From contig CAJWHW010000035.1 of NCBI GenBank assembly GCA_913040915.1, forward strand, positions 1-13,321: a stretch of DNA of 13,321 nucleotides, in the 5' to 3' direction. Under the pieces are notes generated by a model. The model made no database searches, was not told the origin of the DNA, and saw only the letters and a list, made by a program, of their open reading frames with translations. How positions within the stretch are numbered: the stretch's first letter is position 1; every line of letters begins with the position of its first letter. This stretch comes from an uncultured Fidelibacterota bacterium. GTDB lineage: Bacteria; Fidelibacterota; Marinisomatia; Marinisomatales; UBA1611. A program made the position numbers and the translations under genes. Shown here in pieces: positions 1,350-10,503 of this stretch.

Positions 1350-1450
1350 AAATTTTTTAAAAATTGCTTAATGTTAAGTAAAAAGGAATCAAATTTTTTA
1401 ATGATTCTAATTTATTTAAAAATCTTGTTTTATTACTATTTAAATTATTT

Positions 1451-1600
1451 TTTAACATAAAATTCGTTTCAAATTAAAATCTTAATCATATAGACTAAAA
1501 CTGGATAATATTCTTCATATATATTTTTTGAAATTAGTTTGATGATTTCTTATCTACTAATGAAACAGCACAATCTGCAAAACCTAAACCTGTCATTTGA
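1451..1600 (-). pseudogene. galK: Degraded galactokinase C-terminal remnant
   Basis: 1596-1555 translates to MTGLGFADCAVSLV, 10/14 identical to the GalK motif MTGGGFGGCAVALV. A stop follows at 1534-1536, then a frameshifted DFNLK/EFYV-like tail (1481-1454). Same strand as, and just upstream of, galM. Confidence 0.6.
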
Positions 1601-1898
1601 ATTACAAATCTATTGTGGAAATATTTTACACCTTATCAGCCCCAGAACATTAAATACCATTAATATTTCATTATCATATGCAATAGAGAAATAAAGAAAA
1701 ATTTTTATTTTTAATTAATCATTAAATTTGTTCTACATATCATCTAAATAAATTTGATGATATAAAATAAACATTAATAAAGCGATCTTATTCTATAATA
1801 ATAGAAATGCTTTAATTACTTTGTTAAATAAAAATAGAAAACTTTTTCAAGCTTAATCCTAATCAGTAATTTTTAGATAATTTCTGAACCAATATAAA

Positions 1899-2942
1899 TT
1901 GAAAAATAAATTAAAATACCTGTTATTGGCAGTAATTATTGCTACTATAGCAATATCCTTTAAATATCCAATATTTAGTACCTCCCCAAAAATTTATGCA
2001 TTAGATCAGAATATGGTATTAATACCAGGAGGAAAATTTCTTATGGGTAGTAATGGAGTAGAAGCCTTCTCAAATGAAATGCCCGTACACGAAGTGATTG
2101 TAGACTCCTTTTTTATGGACCAATATGAAGTTACCAATCTCCAATTTTTAGAATTTGTGAATGAGACTGGATATATTACTACTGCAGAAAAAATGATTAG
2201 CTGGGCTGAAATGGAAAAACAATTGCCTGCTGGTACTCCTAAACCACCGGATTCTTTATTGTTACCCGGTTCACTTATTTTTGTTCAAAATAAAAATCTG
2301 ATATTGTTAAATGATGAGTCAAAATGGTGGAAGTGGGAAAAAGGAGCTTCATGGAAAAATCCAGCCGGAAATAATAGTACTACTAAAAATAAAATGAATC
2401 ATCCTGTCGTTCATATATCCTGGGAAGATGCAAATGCTTTTGCGAAATGGGCAGGTAAAAGATTACCGACTGAAGCTGAATGGGAATTTGCTGCCCGTGG
2501 TGGGATAGAAAAATCTCGTTATCCTTGGGGAAATGTATCCATAAATAAATCACCCATGCGCGCTAATTTTTGGCAAGGAAATTTCCCTGCTGTAAATACT
2601 GAAGAAGATGGATTTTTATTAACTGCACCAGTTGGTTCTTACCCACCTAATAATTATGGATTATATGACATGGCTGGAAATGTATGGGAATGGTGTTCTG
2701 ATTATTATAATGAGAGTAGCTATGCTTATGATAAAAGCTTAGGAGTTTGTATTAATCCAAAAGGGCCAGAAATGGCCTACGATTCTGAAGAACCATTCGC
2801 AAAAAAAAGGGTACTGCGAGGCGGATCTTTTTTATGCAATGATAGCTATTGCTCAGGATATAGAGTTAGCAGAAGAATAGGGTCAACAGAAGATACAAGT
2901 CTGAATCACACTGGTTTTCGTTGTGTAAGAGACTATAATTAA
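1899..2942 (+). CDS. Formylglycine-generating enzyme (SUMF1/FGE-sulfatase family) with N-terminal signal/anchor
   Basis: Motifs GGxFxMG, YEVTN, HPVVHISWEDA, RLPTEAEWEFAARGG, GLYDMAGNVWEW, RGGSFLCNDSYC (active-site SxxCxxxxC) and HTGFRC. TTG start; basic plus hydrophobic N-terminus. Confidence 0.9.
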   Translation: MKNKLKYLLLAVIIATIAISFKYPIFSTSPKIYALDQNMVLIPGGKFLMGSNGVEAFSNEMPVHEVIVDSFFMDQYEVTNLQFLEFVNETGYITTAEKMISWAEMEKQLPAGTPKPPDSLLLPGSLIFVQNKNLILLNDESKWWKWEKGASWKNPAGNNSTTKNKMNHPVVHISWEDANAFAKWAGKRLPTEAEWEFAARGGIEKSRYPWGNVSINKSPMRANFWQGNFPAVNTEEDGFLLTAPVGSYPPNNYGLYDMAGNVWEWCSDYYNESSYAYDKSLGVCINPKGPEMAYDSEEPFAKKRVLRGGSFLCNDSYCSGYRVSRRIGSTEDTSLNHTGFRCVRDYN

Positions 2943-3061: not shown

Positions 3062-6046
3062 TTATTTTATCTTTTTTATCCACTGCTGTAGGCTAGCCAT
3101 TTTTTCAATGGTTATGGCGCAAACACCAAATGATTTTTCCACTATGCCTCTAATGATAAACAACGTTTCCCAGTGGAGCATATCGCCGAATTCACTGAAC
3201 ACACTAGGTAATAAAACACATTCATAGATCTCTGTTTCATCTTCCATCGTTAAAAATTCCATGGGCTCCAAATTACCAGTTATAGTTTCCTTCCGTGTAA
3301 TATACACTCCAATCAAATAAATGGATTGTCCCACAAATTTTGGGATGTCCTTAGCATATTTGATTCTTCGACTCAACCGTGGCCGATATACTGTCAATGG
3401 ATGGACCGATAATGGATATCCAAACGTTTTTAACTCCATTTGGTATTGATCTTCATCGGATAATTCTTGACAATTTGGTGATACTTTTAGAGGCTGTCGC
3501 TCACCATTTTGGAGATAAAAACCTGCCACGCGATAAGCTAATTCTCGATGATTCAACTCCGGTGCTAATTGCCGAAAACATCCGGCATTGGTTAAAACCA
3601 TTGCATCTGCTAAATCCAACTCCACACGATATAAAAAATCGTTCAGTGAATCGAACTCCCCGGCCTTTCTTTCATCTAGAATTCTGTCCACTGCTTTTTT
3701 CTGAAGTCGCTTTATACTCATGAACCCCATGCGAATTTTATTTTTTCGTCCCCGCCATTCCCGGTTACTTCTATTTACATCCGGCGGCAGAATCTGGATT
3801 CTGAAACGTCGAGCTTCACTCATGTAGGCATAGGATGAATAAAAGCCACCTTGGTTGGAAATAACGGCTGCTAAAAATTCTGCTGGGAAGTGCGCTTTTA
3901 GATAGGCACAGGTGAAAGATAACATGGCGTAGGACGCTGAGTGGGGCTTGCAGAACGAATAGCCAGTAAAGGATGCAATCATGTCCCATACACCTTGAAT
4001 CATTTGGGGCCTATAACCTCTCCGGAGTGATCCTGCTGTGAATTTCTTTTTCCACGATAAAATAAGATGCTGCATGGAATCACGGCTCATGGTTTTTCGC
4101 AACGCATCTGCTTCCGCATAACCCAACCCTGCCATAACCATAGCAGCCATGGACACTTGTTCTTCATAAACCATAATACCATAACTCTCAGATAAAAAAT
4201 CCAAATCAGGATGAAGCAAATTCCATTCTTCCCCGTGAATCCTTGATAACATTATATTGGTAAACCGATTTGCTGCCGGGCGGATAATGGATGAATAAAT
4301 CACCACATGTTCAAAATCTACAATACCGGCCTTTACTAAGAGTTGCCGTGTAGCTGGACTCTCAATATAAAACACACCCATGGTTTTTCCCGATTTCATG
4401 AGTTCTTCAGTTTTACTATCTCCTACAGGCTGGATTTGATGATAATCTACATACTTATTTCTGGATGCCGCTTCGCCGTAATTCAAATTCACCTGGCGAA
4501 TCGTATCTCGTACTACTGCCAGACTCCGATTCCCCAACAGATCAATTTTCAATAGCCCTGAATCTTCCACTTGATCTTTTTCCCACTCTACAATCTGGAT
4601 CCCTTTCGGTGCCACAAGCACAGGTACATATTTTCGAATTTCATCCGGTACAATCACCACACCTCCGGGATGAACCGAGGAGTGACGGAATACCCCTACA
4701 ATTTTTTCACTCTCACGTAAAATGCGAATCAAAGTATCATCTAGATCTACATTAGCAAATCTTGGGTCGGTTCGAACCCAATGTTCTAAGTCCCTTCGGG
4801 AAGCATACCAGCCAATCCGCTTGGTAATACTTTTGATCTCTTCGTTGGATAACCCATGAACCTTCCCCACTTCCCGAATGGCAGACCTTGGTTTTAAAAA
4901 TACTTGGCTCGACACCATGGCCGTCCGAGTATTTCCATATTTTTTGAATACATATTCTAGAATACTAGCCCGCTCATCCCAAGGAAAATCCACATCAATA
5001 TCCGGCATATTTTCCCGTTCCGGATGGATAAATCGTTCAAATTGGAGTGAGTGTCGAAGTGGATCGACCTGCGTGATAAATAAACAATAACTTACAATAG
5101 ATGCAGCAGCGGAGCCTCGGCCGATAGTGGCACGGGTTTGTTCAACAATATCTTGCACAATCAAAAAATATGGTGAAAAACCCTTTTGCGTAATAATACT
5201 TAATTCGTGTTGAATGCGTTGTCTGATTATCTCATTAATCTCTCCATATCGTATCTTAGCACCAACGTAGACTTTCTCTTTCAATGTTTCACTAGAATGA
5301 TACGTCTCTTTTAAAGAAAGCCCGGGAAAAATTGTATTAATAAATGACCAATCCCGTTTACACCGATCTGCCAAATAACGGCTGTTATTCAGTGAATCCA
5401 AACTGTTAGGAAAAAGTCTCACCATATCCGCTTCAAATCGAAACCAATGCTGATCCGATTTATATTCCGATCGGTTCAATTGTTCCAGTGTAGTATTTTT
5501 TTCAATAGCTCTTAGCATTAGGTGGGCATCATGGTCACTTGGAGATCTGAAATAGACATCACCTGTTCCTACAATCTCCAATTTAAATTTTTTGGATAAA
5601 CGATGTGCTTCAGACTCCTGAATACTTGGACGTAGCTCAATAAATAAATGGGTGTCTGGAATAAATTTCATCAACGCTTTCAACGTATTTTCATCATGTG
5701 CGAGAACAAATAAACCAATACATTTTTCCCTTAAAATATCTATAACCGATTGGTTGGGATTATCATGAATAGCAGACACAATACGACAGATATTTTCATA
5801 CCCATACTGATTTTCTGCCAAAAGGATTACTTCATCTTTATCTGTAATTAAATTTGTGCCAGCGATGGGAAAAATTCCTGCATCTTTGCAATGCTGAACA
5901 AAATGGATAAATCCCCATAATCCATTTACATCTGTCAGTGCTAATGTATCCATGCCCTCTGATTTTGAAAGAGATACCAAATCTGAAAGTGATAAAAGTC
6001 CACGCATGGGAGAATAAACAGAATGAGTGTTTAAATGGATAAACAT
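3062..6046 (-). CDS. dnaE2: Error-prone DNA polymerase III alpha subunit (DnaE2/ImuC)
   Basis: PHP N-terminus (HLNTHSVYS), GRGSAA, catalytic PDIDVDF and KIDLLG, YSFCKPH, C-terminal OB fold. Short (994 aa) and directly downstream of lexA and an imuB-like gene. Confidence 0.9.
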   Translation of the reverse strand: MFIHLNTHSVYSPMRGLLSLSDLVSLSKSEGMDTLALTDVNGLWGFIHFVQHCKDAGIFPIAGTNLITDKDEVILLAENQYGYENICRIVSAIHDNPNQSVIDILREKCIGLFVLAHDENTLKALMKFIPDTHLFIELRPSIQESEAHRLSKKFKLEIVGTGDVYFRSPSDHDAHLMLRAIEKNTTLEQLNRSEYKSDQHWFRFEADMVRLFPNSLDSLNNSRYLADRCKRDWSFINTIFPGLSLKETYHSSETLKEKVYVGAKIRYGEINEIIRQRIQHELSIITQKGFSPYFLIVQDIVEQTRATIGRGSAAASIVSYCLFITQVDPLRHSLQFERFIHPERENMPDIDVDFPWDERASILEYVFKKYGNTRTAMVSSQVFLKPRSAIREVGKVHGLSNEEIKSITKRIGWYASRRDLEHWVRTDPRFANVDLDDTLIRILRESEKIVGVFRHSSVHPGGVVIVPDEIRKYVPVLVAPKGIQIVEWEKDQVEDSGLLKIDLLGNRSLAVVRDTIRQVNLNYGEAASRNKYVDYHQIQPVGDSKTEELMKSGKTMGVFYIESPATRQLLVKAGIVDFEHVVIYSSIIRPAANRFTNIMLSRIHGEEWNLLHPDLDFLSESYGIMVYEEQVSMAAMVMAGLGYAEADALRKTMSRDSMQHLILSWKKKFTAGSLRRGYRPQMIQGVWDMIASFTGYSFCKPHSASYAMLSFTCAYLKAHFPAEFLAAVISNQGGFYSSYAYMSEARRFRIQILPPDVNRSNREWRGRKNKIRMGFMSIKRLQKKAVDRILDERKAGEFDSLNDFLYRVELDLADAMVLTNAGCFRQLAPELNHRELAYRVAGFYLQNGERQPLKVSPNCQELSDEDQYQMELKTFGYPLSVHPLTVYRPRLSRRIKYAKDIPKFVGQSIYLIGVYITRKETITGNLEPMEFLTMEDETEIYECVLLPSVFSEFGDMLHWETLFIIRGIVEKSFGVCAITIEKMASLQQWIKKIK

Positions 6047-7219
6047 TTACAATCGACCTAATGCCTGAAATACATCTGCTGTTTGCAGGCTATGAACACC
6101 ATACTTCTGCCGAACTTTTTCTACCGCTTTAGAGACAGCCATATTCCGATTCTCTCCTGTTAAAAAAAGGTCTGTCTGATAAACATAAGGCCGAAAATCA
6201 GACACATCAATCAAAATGGTTCGAATACGATTTCGTCTTTCATTTGCCTTATTAAAAAGTTGCCGACAGACTGTAATCACCGATGTATCATCAATCCCGG
6301 TAATACACCCAATACTGTGACGCTGATGACCATCAATGTAATGAATGACCAATCGAACCCTGTTCGCCAGTTGTCTTCGCTGACGCAGTTTAAAGGCTAC
6401 CTGTTCTGCTAAATTTTTCACGATAGGATGAAGCACCGTTTCATCATTGGTATCTTCCGGAAGCACCATTTGCTCTACAATATGATCCCGGAATTGATGG
6501 GGCCTTACGACAGATGAATCTTTCCCTTGTGCTTCCCGTGCCAATTGGACGGCATGGATACCAAAGAATGTCAGAAATTGATCTGTGTTGCTTGCCATGG
6601 ATTGAATCTGCTGAACCTGTTCAATCCATAAAAATCGGAGCAAACGTTGAACAGGTTTTTCCTTCACTTTAGGTAGAACTAGCGGTATCAAAGGAGATAA
6701 AAATTTTGCTTCTTCACCATTCTGTACTTCATAAATCGTTTCAGGAACCACAGATGTTACAATCCGGCTTATCAATTTATTGATGCTGATACCCACCATG
6801 CCTGCGATACTGGTTTTCTCTTGGATTTGCTTCAAAATAGATAAACCGGTATTATGAGCATGACTCCGAATCTCACACATTCCATTCATATCCAGATAGA
6901 ATCTGCCCATGCCTTCCAACTCCACAACTGGAGTAAATGTGGATACGGTTTCATATACATAACGATTCACGCGGGCATAAAGTGCTTGATTATAGGGTAG
7001 TAACTGGACACCTTGACTCATTTTGCGAGCGATGGAAACTTTCATGCCATGGGATAGTCCTTCTTCTTTTGCTTCTGGAGATAAAAACAGAATTTTACCG
7101 CTTGGCCGGGTAGATGAGATAATGGCTACCGGACGTGTATTCAGACTGGGATCCATGATCCGCTCTGCCTGGAGCTGTAATTCCTTAAGACGTATATGAA
7201 AAACGTCTTGAGCGATCAT
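6047..7219 (-). CDS. imuB: ImuB-like catalytically inactive Y-family polymerase
   Basis: DinB-like layout, but the catalytic motifs are degenerate (HIRLKEL in place of HxDMDAF; GMGRFYLD in place of SxDExYLD). Beta-clamp motif QTDLF at 6164-6178. Its stop codon abuts the dnaE2 ATG with no gap. Confidence 0.85.
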   Translation of the reverse strand: MIAQDVFHIRLKELQLQAERIMDPSLNTRPVAIISSTRPSGKILFLSPEAKEEGLSHGMKVSIARKMSQGVQLLPYNQALYARVNRYVYETVSTFTPVVELEGMGRFYLDMNGMCEIRSHAHNTGLSILKQIQEKTSIAGMVGISINKLISRIVTSVVPETIYEVQNGEEAKFLSPLIPLVLPKVKEKPVQRLLRFLWIEQVQQIQSMASNTDQFLTFFGIHAVQLAREAQGKDSSVVRPHQFRDHIVEQMVLPEDTNDETVLHPIVKNLAEQVAFKLRQRRQLANRVRLVIHYIDGHQRHSIGCITGIDDTSVITVCRQLFNKANERRNRIRTILIDVSDFRPYVYQTDLFLTGENRNMAVSKAVEKVRQKYGVHSLQTADVFQALGRL

Positions 7220-7229
7220 GGAAGCGTAC

Positions 7230-7850
7230 CTAGTTCAAATAATTCCGGAAGGAATAAAGAAGCACGCCATTAATATGAAAATCGTCTTGTGGATTTATTT
7301 TAATGATTGGAAATTTAGGATTCCTGGGATGGAGCTCAATACAATCCAGTCTGGGAATATAACACTTTAATGTGGCTTCACCATTGATCAATGCTACCAC
7401 AATTTGCCCGGATCGAGCTGTAGCTGCTTTCTTCGCAACAATAAAATCGCCATCGTGAATATTTTCATCGATCATGGAATTCCCTTTCACCTGTAGTACA
7501 TAGTTATCAGGATGCAGCAAGGATGGAGGTACATCTACCATTTCTGGGTTCTCTAACGCTTCGATGGGTTCTCCCGCAGCAATAAGGCCCAGCAGCGGCA
7601 AACGAGCTGATGTAGTTGTGGCGTGCTCTTTGTGGATTAATGTGAGCGCTCGCTTACCGTTGGGACCTTTTATACGAGATAAATGACCTTCTTGTTCTAA
7701 GGTCTTTACATACCAATTCACTGTCCCCAATGAACCAAATCCCAAACTAGCCATAATCTCTTCATAGGATGGAGAATAGCCGTGGATCAACGTGAATCGT
7801 TGGATAAAATTCAGGAATTTTTTCAATTTTGGGGACAAGGCTTTTATCAC
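7230..7850 (-). CDS. lexA: SOS repressor LexA
   Basis: N-terminal wHTH (GYSPSYEEI), Ala-Gly cleavage site (IAAGEP), catalytic Ser (VKGNSM) and Lys (EATLK); GTG start; 206 aa. Confidence 0.93.
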   Translation of the reverse strand: MIKALSPKLKKFLNFIQRFTLIHGYSPSYEEIMASLGFGSLGTVNWYVKTLEQEGHLSRIKGPNGKRALTLIHKEHATTTSARLPLLGLIAAGEPIEALENPEMVDVPPSLLHPDNYVLQVKGNSMIDENIHDGDFIVAKKAATARSGQIVVALINGEATLKCYIPRLDCIELHPRNPKFPIIKINPQDDFHINGVLLYSFRNYLN

Positions 7851-7993
7851 GAGGTAATAGAAAAATATTGTGTGATAGATTTTCCATCCCAGACAATAGA
7901 TCGAGATTCTTTTTTACATTCATATTCCTTCAGCCTGGCTAACGCCCGAATAACAGCTAAAGATGGTTGTTTTTTTATTCTTTTCTTCATCAT
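7847..7993 (-). CDS. Small basic hypothetical protein (48 aa) leading the lexA operon
   Basis: MMKKRIKKQPSLAVIRALARLKEYECKKESRSIVWDGKSITQYFSITS. Its TGA overlaps the lexA GTG (GTGA at 7850-7847), and it fills the space between the predicted promoter and lexA. No clear SD. Confidence 0.5.
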   Translation of the reverse strand: MMKKRIKKQPSLAVIRALARLKEYECKKESRSIVWDGKSITQYFSITS

Positions 7994-8068
7994 TTGTAAT
8001 ATACAGAATTCACTAAGATTACAAAGGCTTTCTCTTAGATAACTCTATATCCCTTATGTTTTATAATA

Positions 8069-8090
8069 TTACTCGTAAGTTACTCGTAAG
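8069..8090. promoter_or_regulatory. Candidate LexA operator: tandem 11-bp repeat TTACTCGTAAG x2, each containing the palindrome TTAC-N2-GTAA
   Basis: Exact repeat at 8069-8079 and 8080-8090, immediately downstream of the predicted -10 of the lexA cassette promoter. Confidence 0.65.
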
Positions 8091-8091
8091 T

Positions 8092-8120
8092 ATATTACAA
8101 AAGTTTTTAGTTTTGTGCAA
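8092..8120 (-). promoter_or_regulatory. Predicted sigma70-type promoter of the lexA-imuB-dnaE2 operon
   Basis: Minus strand TTGCAC (8120-8115), 17 nt spacer, TAATAT (8097-8092), directly after the menA terminator. Confidence 0.5.
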
Positions 8121-8152
8121 ATAAAAAGCCCCTGTGTCTAGGGGCTTTTTAT
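8121..8152 (-). terminator. Intrinsic terminator after the PAS-menA gene (potentially bidirectional)
   Basis: Perfect 13-bp inverted repeat ATAAAAAGCCCCT-N6-AGGGGCTTTTTAT with a GC stem and T-tracts on both strands, 25 nt after the stop at 8178. Confidence 0.9.
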
Positions 8153-8177
8153 AAATGTAATGAAATAACTTTGAAGA

Positions 8178-9458
8178 TTAAACAGGCGCTGCGAGCCAAA
8201 GTCCAGTAAAAAGCAATAAACCAGTTACACTGTGCATAATTATTGTACCCCAATTTGCCGGTTCAAGTAATCTGTCATTATAATACTTGTATAAGGTTTG
8301 AATAGAAGTCACGCCAAAGTACGAAGCTAATAAGGTAATTAAGATTAATGAAGGGAAAGTACCATTCAGTACCAGAAAAACTATACTTAAGAAAGCACCT
8401 GAGACCAGTGCCACATAACCTGCCCTCGCTTTCTCTGGACCAAATACAACAATTAGAGTATTTTTGCCTGTAGCTTTATCACTGTCATGATCAGGAAATT
8501 CGTTAATATAAACAACAGCAGCTATTAAAAACCCCAGCGGGATTCCCGCTAAAAATGCTTCAGGCAACAGTTGTCCAGTTTGCACTAATGTACTGCCGGC
8601 AACCATCAATGGACCGAAATTGAGTCCTATTAATAACTCCCCCATACCTTTCCGCGATGCGAATCTAAATGGAGGAGCAGTATAAAATAAACCTGATAAA
8701 AAACCAATTAAACCCAACCATAAAATTGGCATACCCGCTTTCTGTATTAACGGAATACCTACCAACACACTTAAAGCAAAAACGGTAATTGATAAATTTC
8801 TTACACCATATGGAGAAATAAGTCCCATCTGAATGCCTCTACTACCACCGTTAAGACCTTTATTACTATAATTATAGTTTAGATTATCTGTCCCACTTAA
8901 GTGATCAAAATAGTCATTTGAAGTGTTTGTCCCAATGTGCAGTAGAGAGCCGCCTAATAAGGTTACACCTAACCAGTACCAATCAACCGTATAACCTAAA
9001 AATTTTGCAACCGCTGCGCCCACTAAAATTGGCATTATTGTTGCTGATAAAAATGGGAGGCGCATAATCACAACCCATGTAAATATTTGTGTCATAAAAT
9101 TTATTTTTGGTCTTACCTGCTCGGATGTTTTGTCATCTAGCTTAGTAGTCACACCACAGTATCCTATATGTTCACCATTTTTGTCTTTTGTAGGGGTTAT
9201 TTTAATTTTTGCAGGAAATTCGCTACCATCTTTCTTCAGAAAGGTTGTCTCACCTTCCCACTTACCATTTTTAACTGATTCATCTAACCAGCCGATCACA
9301 TGACCTAAAACGACCTGTCCATCACTAAAATCACTGACTCTCATCTTCCCAATAACTTCGTCTTCGCTGTAACCAAATAATTGTTCAGCGCCTTCACTGA
9401 AGGTTTCCACTTTTCCATCTAAATCGCATGTTATAATACTTTTTAAACCTTTACTCAT
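8178..9458 (-). CDS. menA: PAS domain fused to MenA-type (1,4-dihydroxy-2-naphthoate) UbiA-family prenyltransferase
   Basis: aa ~1-107 PAS/PAC (IITCDLDGKV..FSEGAEQLFGYSEDEVIGK..KKDGSEFP). aa ~125-426 multi-TM MenA with RLPFL, NDYFDHLSGTD, GGSR, YTAPP, GMGE and NEFPDHDSDKATGKNTL. One continuous frame. Confidence 0.85.
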   Translation of the reverse strand: MSKGLKSIITCDLDGKVETFSEGAEQLFGYSEDEVIGKMRVSDFSDGQVVLGHVIGWLDESVKNGKWEGETTFLKKDGSEFPAKIKITPTKDKNGEHIGYCGVTTKLDDKTSEQVRPKINFMTQIFTWVVIMRLPFLSATIMPILVGAAVAKFLGYTVDWYWLGVTLLGGSLLHIGTNTSNDYFDHLSGTDNLNYNYSNKGLNGGSRGIQMGLISPYGVRNLSITVFALSVLVGIPLIQKAGMPILWLGLIGFLSGLFYTAPPFRFASRKGMGELLIGLNFGPLMVAGSTLVQTGQLLPEAFLAGIPLGFLIAAVVYINEFPDHDSDKATGKNTLIVVFGPEKARAGYVALVSGAFLSIVFLVLNGTFPSLILITLLASYFGVTSIQTLYKYYNDRLLEPANWGTIIMHSVTGLLLFTGLWLAAPV

Positions 9459-9475
9459 TATGCCCTTTATGCCCT
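9458..9475 (-). repeat. 9-bp tandem duplication (AGGGCATAA x2) spanning the RBS of PAS-menA
   Basis: Plus-strand TTATGCCCT at 9458-9466 and 9467-9475; the minus strand reads AAAAAGGGCATAAAGGGCATAATG. Confidence 0.7.
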
Positions 9476-9617
9476 TTTTCTAGTTATATTTAAGTTGAAT
9501 TTACAAATGCATTGCACTTAAAATTAAAATGAAAATTACAGTAAGTAAAAAATTGAGCTACTTTGTGTTGTACCTAGCTTATAATTTTTACCATTATGGT
9601 AAATACCAAAAATCAAT

Positions 9618-9848
9618 TTAGCTTGAATTTTCCTTAATTAGTTTTTCAATTTCCCTCTCATCAGGAAATCTTTTTAACTCCTTTTTTGAAAAAATAAGAT
9701 TCCCATCTAATGATACTTCATAGACACCGCCGCCACTGGAAATTAAATTTGTTTCAATACCCGGAAATTTTGATTTGAGTTCTTCTTCCAAACTGGAAGC
9801 CCGAGGTAGATAGTTTCACATACTGCAATATTCGATAGATACTTTCAT
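9618..9848 (-). CDS. Rdx family (SelW/SelT/SelH-like) selenoprotein, 76 aa, CxxU motif
   Basis: Hand translation: MKVSIEYCSM-U(TGA 9818-9816)-NYLPRASSLEEELKSKFPGIETNLISSGGGVYEVSLDGNLIFSKKELKRFPDEREIEKLIKENSS-TAA. Rdx motifs IEYCxxU, GxxEV, LIFSK and RFP lie on both sides of the TGA. SD AGGGA at 9858-9854. Confidence 0.92.
9785..9799 (-). promoter_or_regulatory. Candidate bacterial SECIS hairpin of the Rdx gene
   Basis: CUUCCA-GUU-UGGAAG: 6-bp stem with a G-first apical loop beginning 22 nt after the UGA. Confidence 0.7.
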
Positions 9849-9849
9849 T

Positions 9850-10350
9850 TTATTCCCTAATTGATACTTTTTCAAATGTTTTTAAAACATCTAACGGGTG
9901 TGAATTTAAATTCACATCATTGAATATTCGAACTAGTATCCCATTTTCATCAATCAAAAATGTTTTTCTGGAAGGAAATAAAAATTTATTTACACCGTAT
10001 TTTTTACCGACAATTTTATCTGAATCCGATAGAAAATTAAATGGAATTCTATATTTTTCACGAAATGATTTTAAAGATTTCTTTGAATCATAACTGATTC
10101 CTATAACTGCAATATTTATTGATTTATATTTTTCAGATTCATCCCGGAATCCACATGCCTGCTTAACTCATCCAGGCGTATCCGCTTTGGGGAAAAAATA
10201 TACTACTAGTTTTTGACCTTTATAATCCGATAAGGAATGAAAATTGCCATCTTGGTCTTGGAGATTAAAATCTGGTGCAGGTTTTCCTATTGTTGGCGGT
10301 TTCCCAAAAAGCGACATGAATAACAACCCATTAATTAAAAAAAATTTCAT
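9850..10350 (-). CDS. bcp: Selenocysteine-containing peroxiredoxin, BCP/PrxQ subfamily, 166 aa
   Basis: The track ORF stops at FFPKADTPG-TGA (10170-10168), exactly at the peroxidatic Cys of PxxxTxxC. The frame continues VKQACGFRD..VIGISYD..FLSDSD..YGV..SRKTFLIDENG..HPLDVL to TAA at 9852-9850. Alternative start ATG at 10317. Confidence 0.93.
10134..10153 (-). promoter_or_regulatory. Candidate bacterial SECIS hairpin of the bcp gene
   Basis: UGGAUUC-CGGGAU-GAAUCUG: 7-bp stem (2 GU pairs), loop with G at position 2, beginning 21 nt after the UGA. Confidence 0.65.
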
Positions 10351-10503
10351 GAAATTTGATCATCAACAGCAATAACTGCCTGACCCATAAATTATCAACT
10401 ATATATTTTCTTTATTTATAAAAAAGTAAATCAAAGATTTATTTAAATATTTCAAGTGTTAAAATAATCAAGTTGTTTATAGAATAGTATTAAATTTTAT
10501 CTT

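Follow-up and report, generated by a model that had tools for sequence, protein, structure and literature searches.

A PAS domain fused to a MenA-like UbiA-family prenyltransferase in a Fidelibacterota genome without a detected menaquinone ring pathway

The gene and its domain layout

The DNA analysed here (the window) is a stretch of 13,321 nucleotides from an uncultured marine Fidelibacterota bacterium of the SAR406 group. Its minus strand carries a gene, P0001, in which a PAS domain precedes a membrane prenyltransferase of the UbiA family. The open reading frame (8178..9458) starts with ATG, encodes 426 amino acids and has no internal stop codons. The following features were assigned to the gene and its downstream flank.

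8178..9458, minus strand: whole gene P0001, PAS plus MenA-like UbiA-family prenyltransferase, 426 aa (open reading frame and profile matches)
9144..9440, minus strand: PAS domain, residues 7-105 (Pfam, alignments, AF2, Foldseek)
9060..9137, minus strand: linker and juxtamembrane helix, residues 108-133, with P117 conserved and R133 invariant (alignment, AF2)
8193..9059, minus strand: UbiA-type membrane domain, residues 134-422, nine predicted helices (Pfam, AF2, Foldseek)
8904..8927, minus strand: first Asp-rich motif, N178-x2-N181-D182-x2-D185, end of helix 2 (invariant in 65/65 aligned fusion proteins)
8478..8504, minus strand: second Asp-rich motif, N319-x2-P322-D323-x3-D327, end of helix 6 (invariant in 65/65 aligned fusion proteins)
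8121..8152, minus strand: terminator-like hairpin, a 13-pair stem followed by a U run, 26 nt past the stop codon (folding)

An earlier note on this DNA, made from the sequence alone, had described a complete in-frame PAS domain at about 9138-9458 and a MenA-like membrane enzyme that keeps both Asp-rich motifs. Both descriptions hold. The Pfam match puts the PAS domain at about 9144-9440; PAS_9 (PF13426) covers residues 7-101 with an E-value of 4.8e-13 and 49.7 bits (cut-off 27), and PAS (PF00989; 36 against 22.6), TIGR00229 (43.9 against 22.9) and PAS_3 also exceed their cut-offs. The UbiA profile (PF01040) matches residues 141-395 with an E-value of 1.5e-30 and 106.7 bits against a cut-off of 34.2, and the Asp-rich motifs, of the Mg/diphosphate-binding kind, are the invariant ones listed above. 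An AF2 single-chain model (pLDDT 92.9, pTM 0.90) has nine long helices across residues 134-422, so that profile score, Asp-rich motifs and nine-helix fold all agree with the PF01040 superfamily. In the same model, strands at residues 6-12, 16-20, 67-74, 80-91 and 97-106 form the five-stranded sheet with flanking helices that defines a PAS fold.

The hairpin downstream of the gene folds at -18.4 kcal/mol (z -4.96), a value equalled by 0 of 200 shuffles. It was missed by a simple consensus scan of positions 7900-10500, in which the promoter and terminator counts (15 versus 11.7 expected; 2 versus 1.3) did not rise above those of shuffled sequences. Exact matches to the gene come from two contigs of RNA libraries, X17 (9162-9380) and X18 (8314-8484), although these libraries may hold DNA. 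The two genes that lie upstream on the same strand in the window are candidates for thiol-redox selenoproteins.

Authenticity and distribution of the fusion

The junction between the PAS and UbiA parts is genuine rather than a product of assembly. It is spanned by contigs from two separate DNA runs (X3 record 15, 8669-9700; X2 record 7, 8933-9442) that are independent of each other, which disposes of the assembly chimera that the earlier note had asked to be checked. Nor is the fusion unique to one sequence, the other doubt raised there, as it was found across several bacterial phyla and in archaea. Among the database matches listed, all 120 of 120 clusters (87-100% identical, 422-429 aa) carry both the PAS and the UbiA Pfam families. 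A search for related loci with an 8-row alignment as query gave 80 loci in the species-representative genomes that were fetched, and in 77 of these the match runs from residue 7 or earlier to at least residue 406. The taxa with the fusion include Marinimicrobia, Chloroflexota, Gemmatimonadota, Bdellovibrio-like bacteria and marine Thermoplasmatota archaea. Literature searches, including those on Marine Group II, Thermoflexus hugenholtzii and the futalosine route, turned up no publication that deals with a PAS-MenA/UbiA fusion or with the quinones of SAR406, in line with the earlier note, whose author knew of no characterised PAS-MenA.

Relation to canonical MenA

The best-scoring NCBIfam families for the fusion are MenA models, and it stays under the cut-off of every one of them. 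TIGR00751 gives 101.5 against a cut-off of 102.15 and NF004751 gives 152.8 against 264; the remaining models of the TIGR00751 and NF004749-NF004754 set are also under cut-off. Canonical MenAs of the same phylum and E. coli MenA exceed these cut-offs. The TIGR00751 scores range from 93 to 126 bits in the clade of the fusion versus 220 to 509 bits in canonical MenA. Conversely, an HMM built from the UbiA part of the fusion family gives its members 220-430 bits, whereas E. coli MenA and 14 MenAs encoded next to MenB reach 125-200 bits. In a quick tree (124 rows, LG+G4) whose deep forks are partly unresolved, E. coli MenA, the 14 MenB-adjacent MenAs and one further row form a 99* clade with the query outside it, and the clade of PAS-fused, PNPOx-fused and stand-alone proteins has a support of 88.

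The identification of the enzyme domain as MenA is therefore not sustained: the protein scores below all NCBIfam MenA cut-offs and lies outside the clade of E. coli MenA and the MenB-linked enzymes. The earlier note had named clustering outside MenA as an outcome that would count against its reading, and this is what the tree gives. By profile scores and phylogeny, the enzyme belongs to a distinct MenA/UBIAD1-like clade apart from canonical MenA.

The missing ring pathway

A gated step in menaquinone synthesis, as had been proposed for this protein, presupposes a pathway that was not detected. In the own genome, which is 85% complete, profile searches found none of MenB, MenD, MqnA/D, MqnC, MenG or UbiD over cut-off; the DHNA pathway is thus undetected, and the search for a second menA and for other men or mqn genes was equally negative over cut-off. 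The markers followed through the phylum were MenB, MqnA/D and MenG/UbiE, with MenD, MqnC and UbiD examined in the own genome only. Across a phylum sample of 201 genomes, a MenA-like gene is present in 149, MenB in 73, MqnA/D in 7 and MenG/UbiE in 123. The 13 phylum genomes with a full-length fusion have neither MenB (0/13) nor MqnA/D (0/13), and MenG/UbiE occurs in 3. The co-occurrence with the Men or futalosine route that goes with MenA was found neither in the own genome nor in these 13 carriers. Because MenG/UbiE is absent from 10 of the 13, the product may be an unmethylated quinone, or else no menaquinone.

The same gap extends to PNPOx-UbiA fusions, a related architecture in the phylum. 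Three families with this fusion lack MenB (f3 0/13, f26 0/30, f28 0/9), including 1-Mb genomes that are 96-99% complete, and MqnA/D is absent from the PNPOx-UbiA fusion genomes as well. Among five carriers from other phyla, MqnA/D was found in none and MenB in one, a Gemmatimonadales genome, so that the fusion is not exclusive to genomes without a ring pathway.

A need for quinone is nevertheless evident, as the own genome encodes complex I (NuoH, 374 bits), a haem O synthase with CtaA and SCO1, and two polyprenyl synthases. Its UbiA-family genes number three, namely CtaB, a GGGP-synthase-like gene and the PAS fusion, and the last of these is the sole quinone-type prenyltransferase found in this 85% complete genome.

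Gene neighbourhoods agree with such a function. By coordinates and Pfam matches, the immediate neighbour of the fused UbiA gene is ubiE/menG in 8 genomes of the phylum, sister or carrier, and a polyprenyl synthase (PF00348, 5e-39) adjoins the fusion on the same strand at 10 mapped loci in archaea, Oligoflexia, Bdellovibrionales and Anaerolineales. Over 21 phylum loci and 80 genome loci, these two are the only neighbours shared beyond close relatives. A CADD/TENA-like di-iron gene beside the fusion in two genomes (G183, G167) was considered as a ring-forming partner and rejected as a general one. It occurs in 31 of the 201 genomes, among them the MenB-positive G186, G115, G169, G154 and G196; it is missing from all 30 f26 genomes, and searches of the carriers G000, G067, G055 and G146 did not find it either.

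Conservation of the PAS domain

Conservation is stronger in the PAS domain than in the catalytic domain that follows it. Mean pairwise identity is 51% in the PAS part versus 46% in the UbiA part, with the PAS value higher in 73% of 2080 pairs; between the query and Gemmatimonadota, identity is 67% in PAS and 43% in UbiA. Eighteen PAS columns are invariant in an alignment of 42 sequences, and the residues invariant in the family include D12, G15, F28, E34, R40, V41, F44, W57 and L58. The closest solved structure by Foldseek is 3lyx, with an rmsd of 1.4 A over 107 columns, followed by the FAD-binding redox sensors Aer and NifL and by LOV domains. A profile search also found NifL PAS1 (E 2.1e-5), and a look-up of the PAS part in the ESM Atlas returned generic PAS clusters only. 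The domain has no recognisable cofactor motif and no LOV-type Cys motif.

The confidence of the single-chain model argues against a freely tethered domain of 106 residues. A complex prediction of PAS (residues 1-118) against UbiA (residues 119-426), run with 65-row alignments and without controls, scored 0.24 and 0.12, where the mark is 0.32, and is counted neither for nor against an association. Judged from conservation and modelling, the PAS domain is most likely integral to the enzyme and strongly constrained. Its slow evolution, together with its replacement by a PNPOx-like domain in sister lineages, suggests an integral module for a ligand or cofactor, which these observations fit better than a lineage-specific sensor.

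That replacement is seen in the longer relatives of the fusion. Of the long forms, 11 of 20 from the database and 7 of 8 from the phylum carry PNPOx_N, and a model of a sister form (whole-model pTM 0.88) has a PNPOx-like fold, with 2i02 as a match at TMt 0.81.

Proposed role and alternative explanations

We propose that the gene encodes the quinone-type aromatic prenyltransferase of the cell, acting on a ring that comes from outside the cell or from an unknown biosynthetic route and carrying an integral ligand- or cofactor-binding N-terminal domain; we would give this reading an even chance. By analogy with the chemistry of the family, the two Asp-rich motifs would serve to attach a polyprenyl chain to an aromatic ring at the cytoplasmic face of the membrane, and the acceptor would most likely be of the naphthoquinol type. 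As the marker genes of both known menaquinone pathways are absent, the ring is presumably made by neither of them in this lineage and would be taken up from outside or produced by an undescribed route. The PAS domain, predicted to sit on the same face of the membrane as the active site, is most likely a small-molecule binder, with the ring substrate or a redox cofactor as its ligand. In this way it may deliver the substrate, prepare it (for example by keeping it reduced) or license it. In the sister lineages, a PNPOx-like split barrel of the flavin- or haem-binding type holds the position of PAS.

The reading closest to the original proposal is that of a bona fide MenA switched by a PAS domain that senses oxygen, redox state or a ligand, forming a one-component gate on menaquinone synthesis. 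PAS is typically a sensor module, redox sensors such as Aer and NifL and the LOV domains stand next after 3lyx among the structural matches, and the two same-strand genes upstream may encode thiol-redox selenoproteins. Moreover, Cys11 and Cys101, which lie on the neighbouring strands A-beta and I-beta of the model (residues 6-12 and 97-106), could form a thiol switch, and both are present in 44 of 65 sequences. However, the two cysteines have been lost independently (Cys11 alone in 13 sequences, Cys101 alone in 6, neither in 2), and the redox-gene neighbours are not kept outside close relatives. Sensor modules mostly do not evolve more slowly than catalytic domains, as this PAS does, and an enzyme-like PNPOx barrel occupies its place in sister clades. 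With the protein outside the canonical MenA clade and under all MenA cut-offs, and the DHNA pathway unfound in 13 of 13 phylum carriers by the MenB and MqnA/D markers, we regard a sensor-gated MenA as unlikely.

A PAS domain without a ligand, serving purely as a structural cap or as a handle for dimerisation or oligomerisation, is a quite unlikely explanation. PAS domains frequently dimerise, and the lack of a recognised cofactor motif and the high single-chain pTM, which fits a rigid attachment in the model, are consistent with such a role. Against it, invariant R40 and W57 fall at pocket-type positions in the HMM alignment with NifL, D12 and E34 are invariant too, and the N-terminal domain of the sister clade has a small-molecule-binding fold. 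The acceptor might also be something other than a quinone, aromatic or not, such as a pigment, a lipid or a secondary metabolite. The UbiA superfamily is chemically diverse, and the failed MenA cut-offs, the unfound ring pathway and the absence of MenG from 10 of 13 carriers would all suit this. Yet among characterised proteins MenA and UBIAD1 are the nearest relatives, and the fused genes have ubiE as a neighbour in 8 sister or carrier genomes and a polyprenyl synthase at 10 loci. NuoH and assembly genes for a haem-copper oxidase also indicate that a quinone is needed in this genome, where no other candidate prenyltransferase was found; a non-quinone acceptor is accordingly very improbable.

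Significance

These aerobic heterotrophs cannot do without respiratory quinones, and yet a large share of the phylum has retained just a fused MenA-like enzyme and no known ring pathway. Carriers from other phyla and marine archaea show the same gap. On a wider scale, the PAS- and PNPOx-fused clade may represent a third, undescribed way to a respiratory quinone, through a dedicated system that salvages a naphthoquinone-type ring from the environment with high affinity, or through an unknown ring pathway or new quinone, in which the N-terminal domain binds the ring or a redox cofactor and is part of the chemistry. This way would be common to uncultured lineages of very high abundance in the ocean (SAR406, SAR202-type Chloroflexota and Marine Group II/III archaea) and to many Anaerolineae, a generalisation that we put forward tentatively and consider possible rather than probable. 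Salvage of the ring would make quinone precursors a public good that is traded in the ocean, whereas production of the ring would mean that a new pathway or quinone awaits discovery.

A recent census of quinone pathways describes many bacterial lineages, mostly Bacillota and Chloroflexota, as seemingly without quinone pathways and adds that there may be further quinones to discover (PMC13386864). Its Text S1 names four species with measured MK and no MK pathway, belonging to Romboutsia, Thermacetogenium, Thiogranum and Mesosutterella (PMC13386864 Text S1); these are not among the fusion carriers seen here. The name 'Marinisomatota' was not found in supplementary file 3 of the same work (PMC13386864). 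The gene family offers a concrete handle on this gap, with one protein, a small soluble domain and cultured carriers, a putative one being Thermoflexus hugenholtzii.

Comparison with known systems

E. coli MenA (b3930) has the superfamily, the fold, the two Asp-rich motifs and a nine-helix core of about 300 aa in common with the fusion. The fusion differs from it by the N-terminal PAS domain, the scores below cut-off, the separate branch and the occurrence of MenB in 0 of 13 genomes. A parallel in gene content comes from a 2017 study, which reportedly described a prenyltransferase retained although the ring pathway is missing. The pattern is the same as in the fusion carriers, but those cases use an ordinary stand-alone MenA, whereas the present enzymes form a clade of their own with a fused domain and occur in free-living marine and other lineages.

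The PAS domain shares its fold with NifL PAS1 (2gj3), Aer (8dik) and LOV domains, which are among its nearest structural matches. In the HMM alignment, a NifL Trp stands opposite W57, and the invariant R40 takes the position of the Glu in the GKNE segment of NifL PAS1, a residue that we take to be the flavin-proximal one.

The PNPOx-like-UbiA fusions (e.g., L041 of genome G134, P0232) belong to the same MenA-like clade as the PAS fusion and likewise place a cytoplasmic N-terminal domain with a small-molecule-binding fold directly before helix 1. In these proteins, however, the domain is a flavin/haem split barrel rather than PAS, and ubiE is adjacent more often. A literature search found no description of them, and to our knowledge they are undescribed.

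The nearest solved structure by sequence is that of UBIAD1, the human MK-4 synthase (PDB 8djk; E 3.4e-9, 22% identity). It is also the nearest fold (Foldseek 8djk_B, E 2.1e-8, TMt 0.77), with further Foldseek matches to 6m31, 4tq3 and 4od4. Unlike the fusion, UBIAD1 is eukaryotic, has no PAS domain and, according to the entry title, is regulated via a partner protein, HMGCR. UBIAD1 adds its prenyl chain to menadiol, a ready-made ring obtained by salvage, and works without de novo ring synthesis. Ring salvage of the UBIAD1 type thus provides the working model for the PAS fusion.

Architecture and authenticity of the fusion

The gene at 8178-9458 on the minus strand is an uninterrupted ORF that starts with ATG and runs for 426 codons. 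Its product combines two domains:

Residues 7-101, minus strand: PAS_9 (Pfam E 4.8e-13)
Residues 141-395, minus strand: UbiA (Pfam E 1.5e-30)

The N-terminal domain is a true PAS domain, in which the PAS and PAS_3 profiles likewise exceed their Pfam cut-offs, and its earlier placement (about 9138-9458) was correct. Both Asp-rich motifs are retained, as the earlier note had also stated: N178, N181, D182, and D185 of the first and N319, P322, D323, and D327 of the second are invariant across 65 aligned fusion proteins. The stop codon is followed after 26 nt by a strong hairpin with a trailing U run (fold test: -18.4 kcal/mol, z -4.96), so the gene is predicted to be the last of its transcription unit.

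The worry that the junction is an assembly chimera or unique to this sequence can be set aside. Contigs from two independent DNA runs bridge it (X3 record 15, spanning 8669-9700 with 11 differences from the window, and X2 record 7, spanning 8933-9442 with 0 differences), and the fusion is found in many genomes. The matches listed from a 90%-identity protein collection (at least 120) are all 422-429 aa long, 87-100% identical, and annotated with precomputed PAS and UbiA families; two have the source labels Candidatus Marinimicrobia or Neomarinimicrobiota. Among the best 150 representatives of a 50%-identity library, 21 align from residue 10 or earlier through residue 375 or beyond, at identities down to 32%. 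UbiA is present in all 21 and a PAS Pfam match (E <= 0.001) in 16. One protein, P0130 (551 aa), has an EF-hand pair (PF13499, 2.3e-10) N-terminal to PAS-UbiA. A scan of species-representative genomes, with 582 of 600 candidate stretches confirmed, yielded at least 80 loci. Both domains are spanned in 77 of the 80 loci listed, and the remaining three are truncated by contig ends.

Taxonomic distribution of the loci listed, by record title
Marinimicrobia or unlabelled close relatives: 38
Chloroflexota (Anaerolineae, Dehalococcoidia, SAR202, Thermoflexus): 28
Gemmatimonadota: 3
Myxococcales: 1
Oligoflexia/Bdellovibrionales: 2
Archaea (Marine Group III, Poseidoniales and similar): 8

Two of the 38 (L077 and L091) come from bins labelled Nitrospina sp. 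and Flavobacteriales. Their copies are 73-77% identical to the query and the remaining copies at this identity are all from Marinimicrobia, so these contigs are probably mis-binned.

Identity of the enzyme domain

The best NCBIfam scores are those of MenA models, each below its curated cut-off (TIGR00751, 101.5 vs 102.15; NF004751, 152.8 vs 264). Fourteen MenA genes directly adjoining menB in same-phylum genomes, together with E. coli menA, served as the reference for canonical MenA. These pass the MenA models and score 220-509 bits with TIGR00751; members of the query clade score 93-126 bits. With an HMM built on the UbiA portion of these fusions, family members reach 220-430 bits, whereas canonical MenAs reach 125-200 bits.

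For a quick tree by maximum likelihood (LG+G4, SH-aLRT support only), five fragments and alternate stand-alone rows were omitted, giving 124 rows. One clade with 99* support unites E. coli MenA with the 14 MenB-linked MenAs and a single additional row. The query belongs to a separate 92-row group (support 88), which comprises PAS forms, stand-alone forms, and long forms whose N-domain is a different one. A single sub-clade (support 86) takes 30 of the 34 PAS rows; because the other four are placed elsewhere, more than one fusion event is possible, or else an error in the tree. UBIAD1 is the closest solved structure in both sequence and fold.

Given the sub-cut-off scores, the separate tree position, and the missing pathway company, sequence comparison places the domain as MenA-like and outside canonical MenA, and the name MenA proposed earlier is not supported as it stands. 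The literature searched yielded no paper on MenA/UbiA enzymes fused to PAS or PNPOx; the statement that such a fusion has no characterised example therefore stands, except that its enzyme is not a canonical MenA.

Ring pathways in the carriers

The window's genome (1.86 Mb, 71 contigs, 85% complete) has three UbiA-family genes: the fusion, a haem O synthase adjoining SCO1 and CtaA-like genes, and a geranylgeranylglycerol-phosphate (GGGP)-synthase-like gene. The last, a 280-aa ORF at 1420-2262 (plus strand) of locus L002 (G000:C4), adjoins a methyltransferase-like gene; its best models are archaeal-type geranylgeranylglycerol-phosphate geranylgeranyltransferases (NF009521, 197 bits, below the cut-off of 296). 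Neither a DHNA pathway for a MenA step nor a second menA came to light in this 85%-complete genome. The top MenB match has 147.8 bits vs a cut-off of 342.7, MenD, MqnA/D, MqnC, MenG/UbiE, and UbiD gave nothing above cut-off, and no other quinone-type prenyltransferase was found. NuoH is encoded (374 bits), as are two polyprenyl synthases, so by its gene content the cell should need a quinone.

Since one incomplete genome proves little, a sample of 201 genomes of the phylum was searched. A MenA-like match was present in 149, MenB above cut-off in 73, MqnA/D in 7, and MenG/UbiE above cut-off in 123. The full-length fusion occurs in 13 (G000, the window's own genome, and G193, G137, G067, G200, G189, G183, G167, G181, G180, G178, G146, and G055); G055 is counted because an intact 445-aa ORF is present, although one TAA was reported inside the match. 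MenB and MqnA/D are each absent from all 13, and MenG/UbiE is present in three (G200, G180, and G178). Within the window's family, MenB, canonical MenA, and MenG occur in genus g2, and all three are lacking in genera g1, g3, g4, and g5, which carry the fusion. Five carriers from other phyla (completeness not stated) showed MenB once, in Gemmatimonadales, and MqnA/D in none. One further genome, G154, has MenB, a MenB-adjacent MenA, and MenG, plus a fusion remnant (L058, C91:10500-12200) in which tblastn recovers residues 1-151 and 370-419 only, the catalytic core being gone. This single case may represent decay where the classical pathway exists.

Genomic neighbours

A ubiE/menG-type methyltransferase gene (PF01209, 4e-45) directly adjoins the fused UbiA gene in eight phylum genomes (G131, G099, G166, G083, G165, G156, G134, and G180). 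At 10 mapped loci a polyprenyl synthase gene adjoins the fusion on the same strand (PF00348, 5e-39 in the representative scanned), with MGIII/Poseidoniales archaea, Oligoflexia, Bdellovibrionales, and Anaerolineales as hosts; for an eleventh cluster member, the UbiA gene of the locus was not called by the ORF filter. Both are partners expected of a polyprenyl-quinone enzyme. Other neighbours show no conservation beyond close relatives across the phylum loci and the mapped species-representative loci. In two genomes the fusion has a CADD/TENA-like gene next to it, which was rejected as a general partner, as it occurs in 31 of 201 genomes, MenB-positive ones included, and shows no co-distribution.

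Several other genes flank the fusion in the window:

3062-7850, minus strand, directly downstream: LexA-like repressor (S24 peptidase), ImuB/Y-family-like gene, and DnaE2-type polymerase III alpha gene, in a row
9621-9848, minus strand, upstream: gene with one in-frame TGA
9853-10317, minus strand, upstream: gene with one in-frame TGA

The downstream row, by its gene content an apparent SOS mutagenesis cassette, is kept in the closest relatives. With TGA read as Sec, both upstream genes are selenoprotein candidates. One matches AhpC/TSA peroxiredoxins (E 4.1e-37), its TGA falling on the active-site position of TPG-x-VKQAC, and the other is Rdx/SelW-like (E 3.8e-23) with a C-x-x-U motif; tRNA-Sec is absent from the 30 tRNAs called by ARAGORN in the 85%-complete genome. 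In 10 close relatives (L064, L066-L071, L073, L075, and L092) a PF04199 "putative cyclase" gene (kynurenine-formamidase-like) lies directly upstream on the same strand, a slot taken in the window by the Rdx-like gene (cf. 9459-9620).

Proposed working and alternatives

In the reading that we favour, and to which we give an even chance, the fusion would transfer a polyprenyl chain onto a naphthoquinol-type ring, itself either imported or the product of an unknown route. The N-domain would bind the ring or a redox cofactor and then hand the ligand over, keep it reduced, or license catalysis. The basis is a prenyltransferase of MenA/UBIAD1-like type whose catalytic motifs are intact, with no second enzyme of the kind found in a genome that encodes complex I and assembly genes for a haem-copper oxidase; the absence of marker genes of both known ring pathways from all 13 phylum-sample carriers; a constraint on the fused N-domain that exceeds that on the enzyme domain; and the barrel of cofactor-binding type at the same place in sister clades.

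The query's AF2 model is confident overall (pLDDT 92.9, pTM 0.90), which suggests a PAS docked on the membrane domain: with a quarter of the chain hinging freely, pTM would be held to about 0.7. The fused PAS is unusually constrained, more so than the enzyme domain: over 2080 pairs of 65 sequences the PAS (residues 6-107) averages 51% identity and the membrane domain 46%, the PAS being the higher in 73% of pairs, and against Gemmatimonadota the query has 67% and 43%, respectively. Eighteen columns, including D12, E34, R40, F44, and W57, are invariant in 42 PAS segments from all phyla. Since the PAS precedes helix 1 and the Asp-rich motifs end helices 2 and 6, the helix count puts them on the same membrane face, presumably the cytoplasmic one, going by solved UbiA enzymes. 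Three other readings are less likely. A purely structural PAS domain is unlikely, and a product other than a quinone somewhat more so beside the ubiE/menG and polyprenyl synthase neighbours. The earlier note's redox-gated MenA is also unlikely, but stands above both. Cys11 and Cys101 lie on neighbouring strands, and a disulfide switch is possible in many members; with both residues in 44 of 65 sequences, Cys11 alone in 13, Cys101 alone in 6, and neither in 2, it cannot be the universal function.

The interest of the PAS-UbiA fusion lies in its orphan ring and the abundance of its carriers. A census of quinone pathways in bacteria, dated 2026 (PMC13386864), describes many lineages seemingly without such pathways and suggests that new quinones may still await discovery.

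Comparison with known systems

The fusion probably works in the manner of MenA or UBIAD1 and departs from canonical MenA on three counts: its score, its place in the tree, and its pathway company. The closest PAS fold is 3lyx (an uncharacterised GGDEF-protein PAS), followed by FAD-PAS domains (Aer, NifL) and by LOV domains. In a profile alignment to NifL PAS1, W57 stands opposite a NifL Trp, and the Glu of the NifL GKNE segment is matched by the invariant R40; cofactor binding by the fusion PAS is putative. In sister lineages, another small-molecule-binding fold holds the PAS position. PNPOx_N matches 11 of the 20 long forms from the database (E <= 0.001) and 7 of 8 long phylum forms, 6 of them above the Pfam cut-off. 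The N-domain of one modelled form (517 aa, pLDDT 91.4, pTM 0.88) resembles split barrels of the PNPOx-like kind that bind FMN and haem (2i02, TMt 0.81); in these PNPOx-UbiA proteins a barrel of cofactor-binding type occupies the place of the query's PAS.
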